A DNA stretch of 64,000 bases, from positions 2,784,001-2,848,000 of the forward strand of contig OZ252149.1 in assembly GCA_965248755.1 (NCBI GenBank), in the 5' to 3' direction. Positions 36,131 through 36,373 of this stretch are shown here, one piece after another; positions within the stretch are counted from its first letter, which is position 1, and each line of letters begins with the position of its first letter. Both the position numbers and the translations under genes were made by a program. The stretch comes from Candidatus Latescibacterota bacterium (GTDB lineage: Bacteria > Latescibacterota > CBDEFO01). The notes below the pieces were generated by a model. That model was not told the DNA's origin. It worked only from the letters and a program-made list of their open reading frames with translations, and searched no databases.

Positions 36131-36166
36131 AAAAAAGCCGCAGGCATTCAAGTTATGCCCACGGCT
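36131..36166 (-). terminator. Intrinsic terminator of the predicted attenuator
   Basis: GCCGUGGGCAU-aacuuga-AUGCCUGCGGC followed by UUUUUU. Confidence 0.9.
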
Positions 36167-36195
36167 TTTTATCTTCTGCGATATATACGGCTATC

Positions 36196-36279
36196 TTAAC
36201 TTACGAGCCATGGACATATTCCTCCCCAGTTATACCAGCGGCTGTAATAAATTCCGTAGAAAGGGAGTGAAAATTCCAT
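36196..36279 (-). CDS. Aromatic amino acid-rich leader peptide (27 aa; 2 Phe, 4 Tyr, 3 Trp)
   Basis: MEFSLPFYGIYYSRWYNWGGICPWLVS; AAGGAG RBS 6 nt before the ATG; lies between a promoter and a terminator upstream of the trp/aro operon. Confidence 0.88.
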   Translation of the reverse strand: MEFSLPFYGIYYSRWYNWGGICPWLVS

Positions 36280-36344
36280 CAAGCTCTCCTTTTTCTCCAA
36301 TGTCGTCCAAATTTGCTCTTGGACTGTGTGTTGAAACTACATAT

Positions 36345-36373
36345 ATAATAATCAATATCTGTCGCTTTGTCAA
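36345..36373 (-). promoter_or_regulatory. sigma70 promoter for the leader
   Basis: TTGACA (36373-36368), 17 bp, TATTAT (36350-36345). Confidence 0.82.

Follow-up and report, generated by a model that had tools for sequence, protein, structure and literature searches.

The trpL-trpE leader of E. coli and Salmonella (RF00513) combines a short frame with cognate codons, three helices (1:2, 2:3 and 3:4) and a U-tract upstream of the trp cluster. Multivalent attenuators, which have been tested experimentally, use one leader to read more than one end product where a pathway branches, as in thrL (Thr, Ile) and the ilvGMEDA leader (Leu, Ile, Val). The Corynebacterium glutamicum aroR-aroF attenuator was reportedly described by Neshat et al. 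in 2014. Its leader contains Phe-Tyr-Phe and responds to Phe and not to Tyr (PMC11802643; also PMC4046766). Attenuators also stand ahead of aminoacyl-tRNA synthetase genes, namely E. coli pheM-pheST and Streptomyces trpS and leuS (PMC11802643, PMC1262725), and related literature includes a paper on Shewanella leaders (PMC2659441) and two others (PMC7356990; PMC3082878). The literature searched, which did not cover the main comparative studies, yielded neither a three-aromatic leader nor any attenuator in the phylum Candidatus Latescibacterota, and novelty in print is uncertain.

The locus studied here lies in a 64,000-nt stretch of a Candidatus Latescibacterota bacterium (GCA_965248755.1, contig OZ252149.1, positions 2,784,001-2,848,000), hereafter the window, and all of its elements are on the minus strand. 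The promoter-like site P1 (TTGACA-17-TATTAT, 36373-36345), a consensus match also conserved in genome G001, agrees with the consensus at 11 of 12 positions. It ranked top of nine promoter-like sites in 2 kb, a count that alone is not significant (6.8 in shuffles). Folding placed a small hairpin in the 5' UTR (36324-36305). A Shine-Dalgarno motif, AAGGAG (36291-36286), stands 6 nt before the ATG of a 27-codon leader (36279-36196), both read directly from the DNA. The leader contains two Phe, four Tyr, three Trp and one Arg codon, the aromatic residues being F3, F7, Y8, Y11, Y12, W15, Y16, W18 and W24. Region 1, the predicted protector arm (36247-36231, codons 11-17), pairs with region 2 in a 1:2 helix (with 36218-36201, -13.3 kcal/mol). 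Region 2 (36218-36206, codons 21-25 including W24) was assigned as the 5' strand of the antiterminator by folding, shuffles and covariation; region 3 (36166-36154), assigned by folding and covariation, is both its 3' strand and the 5' arm of the terminator. The 2:3 pairing spans 13 bp (36218-36206 with 36166-36154), and the segment folds at -21.4 kcal/mol. The predicted intrinsic terminator (36170-36131), which also covaries, has a 3:4 stem at 36170-36132 folding at -23.5 kcal/mol, followed by U6 at 36136-36131. On reading and folding the sequence, the promoter, ribosome-binding site, leader frame, 13-bp antiterminator and terminator all lay where the original prediction had put them. The protector helix was absent from it, as was the second promoter-like site, P2, considered below.

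The locus thus has a short, ribosome-binding-site-led frame with codons for the pathway products, an intrinsic terminator and a mutually exclusive, covarying antiterminator, which are the marks of the trpL type. It differs from trpL in several ways. The leader mixes Tyr, Trp and Phe codons instead of carrying tandem Trp, region 2 is contained in the final codons, trpE is preceded by a DUF4139 gene, and no TrpR was found. In the window, no Rfam family reached its gathering threshold, the best weak matches being RF04312 (21.6/59 bits) and RF00506 (19.7/55), and the Trp_leader model RF00513 matched in none of five genomes with 150 candidates scored per genome. Compared by description, aroR shares the use of more than one aromatic codon type and the position ahead of a DAHP synthase gene, which here is in the cluster; however, aroR has no Trp codon and heads aroF, whereas this leader heads a trp-aro-tyr block. 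A fixed rule (small ORF, ribosome-binding site and terminator) gave 59 units genome-wide, of which the leader was the sole outlier, defined as at least five aromatics in 12 codons: its best 12 codons hold seven, and the other 58 units held four or fewer. No second copy of the leader was found in the genome by blastn.

When the upstream RNA was shuffled 300 times, no duplex as strong as the 13-bp antiterminator arose (p=0.003). Covariation was assessed on 31 loci selected by hand and aligned with MAFFT; family f6, in which the unanchored duplex search was noisy, was left out. In the antiterminator core, 81% of cells were paired, against 30-47% in slid controls, and six of nine pairs showed two-sided changes. 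The covariation score was reached by 0/500 shuffles, and the pair count by 89/500. In the same alignment the terminator was 94% paired, with two-sided changes at 8 of 11 pairs. The structure tested was derived from the window itself and the aligned loci are related to one another, both of which favor these covariation results. The 13-nt pairing originally proposed was real and conserved in its core, but its outer four pairs were not conserved in relatives. Taken one by one, the antiterminator duplexes were stronger than those of shuffled RNA (p<0.05) at only 7 of 36 scored loci. In 20 of 21 genera the core overlapped the final codons of the leader, and without a ribosome it was paired upstream in all 21, against 11.9 expected by shuffling. 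These upstream pairing counts point to a putative protector helix in relatives.

Similar leaders were sought across the phylum. A full TrpE match was present in 102 of 168 genomes, and clusters were fetched for 98; nine loci, from among the 50 of the first round, had incomplete upstream DNA and were set aside, leaving 89 trpE clusters. The closest relative of this TrpE in the genome collection was 96% identical and came from a Candidatus Latescibacterota genome (L081). At each locus, the aromatic ORF with the best score was picked from those no more than 420 nt away from the first gene. A score of at least 7.5 was obtained at 71 of the 89 loci, against 11/407 random windows and 4/57 trpE-upstream windows of other phyla. 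Four picks were discarded by eye as wrong (G015, G072, G109, G164). The 85 leaders kept are 15-40 codons long, and 82 are accompanied by a terminator. Trp was enriched 11.7-fold, Tyr 3.0-fold and Phe 2.3-fold in them, values that are biased by the score, since selection of leaders by aromatic score makes the enrichment and the frame control partly circular; Arg, which is outside the score, was enriched 2.0-fold. Peptide sequence was not conserved between families, only composition. Within genera, leader length differed by whole codons, and synonymous changes occurred in Tyr and Phe codons. The predicted leader family spans the phylum. The original prediction had suggested searching upstream of trpE in related genomes for F/Y/W-rich frames with compensatory changes, and such leaders stood before 85 of the 89 trpE clusters, with both antiterminator and terminator covarying.

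The conservation, covariation and geometry back the ribosome-mediated attenuation that had been proposed, and we consider a trpL-type transcription attenuator highly probable on the sequence and folding models. From this anatomy we infer translation of the leader, ribosome stalling and termination. When charged aromatic tRNAs are plentiful, the ribosome would reach the leader stop. There it would cover region 2 toward its 3' end, with the result that 3:4 would form and transcription would end near 36131. A stall at Y8, Y11, Y12, W15 or Y16, with W18 borderline, would place the ribosome over region 1. Region 2 would then pair with region 3, and polymerase would read into DUF4139-trpE and the trp, aro and tyr genes. 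P2 would probably give basal transcription. The proposed switch logic, in which the antiterminator is freed by an upstream stall and masked once the ribosome has reached the last codons, held in equilibrium folding. In this leader 2:3 was the winning helix at equilibrium also when no ribosome was present, which means that control must be kinetic. Searches of this genome, which is 98% complete, found no TrpR, TRAP (PF02081), TyrR HTH or T-box (RF00230).

The amino acids to which the leader would answer were examined by folding, again at equilibrium, in which the ribosome was taken to mask 10 nt past its A site; families f6 and f3, in which the unanchored duplex search was noisy, were left out of this stall analysis. 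Stalls at Y8-Y16 removed the protector (core paired upstream at 0.2 or less), the W18 stall was borderline, and the W24 stall masked the antiterminator. W24 sits within the antiterminator and cannot be a sensor. Provided that the leader is an attenuator, it is likely to sense at least Trp and Tyr. The OR gate originally proposed would add Phe, a shortage of which alone would also cause read-through. The Tyr and Trp codons are suitably placed for such a gate, but the F3 and F7 stalls, both upstream of the protector helix, left it formed (0.8 and 0.7). Every upstream stall in this leader left 2:3 dominant at equilibrium, as did those at 46 of 49 Phe codons across genera; 2:3 being dominant even without a ribosome, Phe sensing turns on kinetics. 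The protector was left formed by 15/49 Phe stalls across genera, against 7/59 Tyr and 6/44 Trp stalls. All three codon types occur in 76 of the 85 leaders, although one Phe per 30 codons is unremarkable. Within genera, the Phe columns took 0.39 non-aromatic replacements each, barely fewer than ordinary columns (0.48), against 0.13 for Tyr, 0.30 for Trp and 0.41 for Arg. In genus g7, two Phe columns were nonetheless invariant in all 15 distinct leaders, with both Phe codons in use. Also in favor of Phe, the nearest Trp codon in g7, g33, g34 and g35 lies 35-52 nt from the antiterminator, mostly farther than F7 does here (40 nt). The cluster contains DAHP synthase, chorismate mutase and shikimate genes, all needed for Phe, but pheA was absent from all fetched clusters, and the precedent aroR answers to only one of its two codon types (PMC11802643). 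On these models Phe sensing through F7 is close to an even question, tilting slightly toward no, and the full three-way gate is possible but somewhat doubtful. Arg sensing was considered because of argS in the cluster and the Arg enrichment, but was not supported for this leader: it has a single Arg, and the columns for this residue are about as variable as ordinary columns.

At the other extreme, the leader might respond to Trp only, its Tyr and Phe codons being structural or drifted neighbors. Trp is the residue most enriched, subject to the score bias noted above, the sister families f6, f4, f8 and f12 carry Trp-run leaders, and the aroR of C. glutamicum ignores Tyr despite its Tyr codon (PMC11802643). 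Yet Tyr is the aromatic codon nearest the antiterminator here and in most f13 and f7 genera, several f13, f7 and f14 leaders pair a single Trp with three to six Tyr, and the Tyr codons are the best conserved and track tyrS and tyrA content, which makes a Trp-only attenuator unlikely. It is also conceivable that the terminator only ends upstream transcription, with P2 as the true operon promoter and the leader vestigial in this genus. P2 (TTGACA-18-TATGTT with a TG motif, 36119-36090) follows the terminator and matches the consensus at 10 of 12 positions, and the -35 of P1 lies in a 33-nt stretch (36386-36354) that agrees at 28/33 positions with the terminal sequence of a high-copy element and is limited to this genus (2/89 loci). 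P2 passed the scan, however, in only 6 of 82 loci (3/27 genera), against 19/1640 control windows; its exact -35 alone occurred in 11/27 genera, a count made without control windows. Several relatives have only 9-30 nt between terminator and first gene, with no room for a promoter, and G001 retains an intact leader with both helices. A vestigial leader is thus quite improbable, although P2 could carry most expression. The most remote of the readings, and one to which we give very little weight, is that the peptide is a small protein or a TnaC-like nascent arrest peptide sensing free aromatics rather than a leader stalled by uncharged tRNA. The length of the leaders and their richness in Arg and aromatics would suit such a peptide, but only composition is conserved between families, the Cys/Val-Pro codons that leaders share at the C-terminus fall on the pairing strand, and arrest by excess product would have the wrong polarity for a biosynthetic cluster.

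Returning to the attenuator, P2 may supply basal transcription that is independent of attenuation. The high-copy element whose end resembles the P1 stretch is presumably of the IS3 type; it codes for an HTH protein together with an rve integrase (for example L236:500-1770) and carries a second, same-direction copy of its end about 1325 nt downstream. There are 94 sites within four mismatches of a 26-mer of this end genome-wide, the P1 site included. P1 is possibly an IS-derived hybrid promoter, and the location of its -35 in a copy of the IS end is an addition to the original prediction. The gene upstream (37780-36422) resembles a bifunctional inositol-phosphate cytidylyltransferase/DIPP synthase with a score below the curated cut-off, and the interval from this gene to P1 showed no terminator.

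The leader was originally said to head a trp/aro/tyr super-operon. It does precede a same-strand cluster, but the first gene is not trpE, and pheA lies outside, about 400 kb away. The 457-aa DUF4139/DUF4140 protein gene (36041-34668) and a 191-nt gap separate the terminator from trpE. Then follow trpE, trpG, trpD, trpC, two methyltransferases, a 2H-phosphoesterase, trpF, trpB and trpA (34476-25345), and next chorismate mutase, DAHP synthase, tyrA, a methyltransferase, a nucleotidyltransferase-HEPN pair, aroA and aroE (25322-18814). The last stretch (18817-8070), on the same strand, holds a ubiE-like methyltransferase, ribB, argS, aroC, aroK, five unrelated ORFs and aroB. The 28-kb block may be a single transcript, a putative unit proposed from its same-strand arrangement. 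DUF4139 is likewise interposed between leader and trpE in 11 of the 12 f6 loci fetched, with a Trp-run leader upstream of it in the nine that have complete upstream DNA; the intervening gene is therefore no argument against control of trpE. DUF4139 was first behind the attenuator in two families (f1 and f6; L042, L043, L060-L064, L071, L079). The toxin-antitoxin-like nucleotidyltransferase-HEPN pair (21934-21105) is inserted in the cluster, as are several SAM methyltransferases. The argS gene (17418-15718) was also within the aromatic cluster in f1, f12, f13, f14 and f7 (also L036, L187, L188). In G001 the cluster DAHP synthase was matched in two pieces (L031, G001:C8 ~1811100-1811840), which suggests a frameshift or an assembly error.

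The codon mix of the leaders varied with the content of the clusters. Leaders of f13 and f7 contain two to six Tyr each; tyrS is in the cluster in 19/20 and 21/24 loci, respectively, with three of the four loci lacking it being short contigs, and DAHP synthase and tyrA are there as well. The f12 leaders have zero to two Tyr and two to four Trp, and trpS is present in 17/17 loci. In f6, f4, f8 and f11, tyrA is detached and leaders have zero to two Tyr. The present genome has four Tyr, with DAHP synthase and tyrA in the cluster; its tyrS and trpS are located outside. Relatives' clusters thus resemble known synthetase attenuators in that tyrS or trpS goes with a matching codon mix, but any synthetase gene found here sits among biosynthetic genes of the cluster. 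In a TrpE tree with one genome per genus, Tyr-rich leaders appeared in two places, f1 and the f14/f13/f7 clade. The distribution is suggestive of a codon mix that follows cluster content, Tyr-rich with tyrS, DAHP synthase and tyrA, and Trp-dominant with trpS or a detached tyrA. Because the tree yields about three independent sister contrasts, two of them on weak nodes, this correlation is suggestive and no test of co-evolution. The simpler idea that Tyr-rich leaders follow tyrA linkage fails on f12, where tyrA is linked and leaders are Trp-dominant; in this family trpS is present and no DAHP synthase is linked.

Other features of these clusters deserve mention. The f12 order (L036, L188 and others) is trpEGDC-trpS-CM-tyrA-aroA-aroE-argS-aroB, trpF, trpB and trpA being absent from the DNA fetched, and a full TrpE match was found in only 19/76 f12 genomes. 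A TrpB2-like gene lies inside the trp cluster in f6, f8 and f4 (L063, L059, L051), f6 and f4 also having ordinary trpB there. A type I-alpha DAHP synthase occurs in f13 and f7 (L184:13926-15029, L187:12481-13506, L227:14246-15370) where f1, f14 and f3 have type I-beta, apparently a displacement in place. In part of f4 (L051, L065, L070), a trpA-CM-aroF-tyrA block lies in inverted orientation, diverging from the block of leader and trpE, and no second leader was found in this arrangement. None was convincing at the detached tyrA/aro blocks of f6, f4, f8, f11, f2 and f5 in 23 loci. In the present genome, neither pheA nor the gene for the second DAHP synthase was found to be preceded by an aromatic leader. 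The two aromatic-scoring small ORFs ahead of tyrS or trpS were rejected as paralogous leaders: neither had a terminator, and one overlapped the upstream gene.

The mechanism itself is not new, and its mixed-aromatic-codon form is unusual. It would extend classical attenuation to an uncultured phylum, in a family outside Rfam, and would be an aromatic counterpart to the multivalent thr and ilv attenuators, predicted here for another pathway. We entertain only tentatively, and with the balance against it, the combined view of a three-input gauge (Trp, Tyr and Phe) over a 20-28 kb unit of nearly the whole shikimate, Trp and Tyr pathways, retuned across the phylum by codon swaps to the recruited branch genes and tyrS or trpS. 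If true, it would provide a natural series of changes in attenuator specificity. The 85 homologous leaders, which range from Trp-run to Tyr-rich, make the gain and loss of specificity and the distance limits of control codons testable, and a single element that senses two or three of the aromatic amino acids may be useful as a biosensor part.
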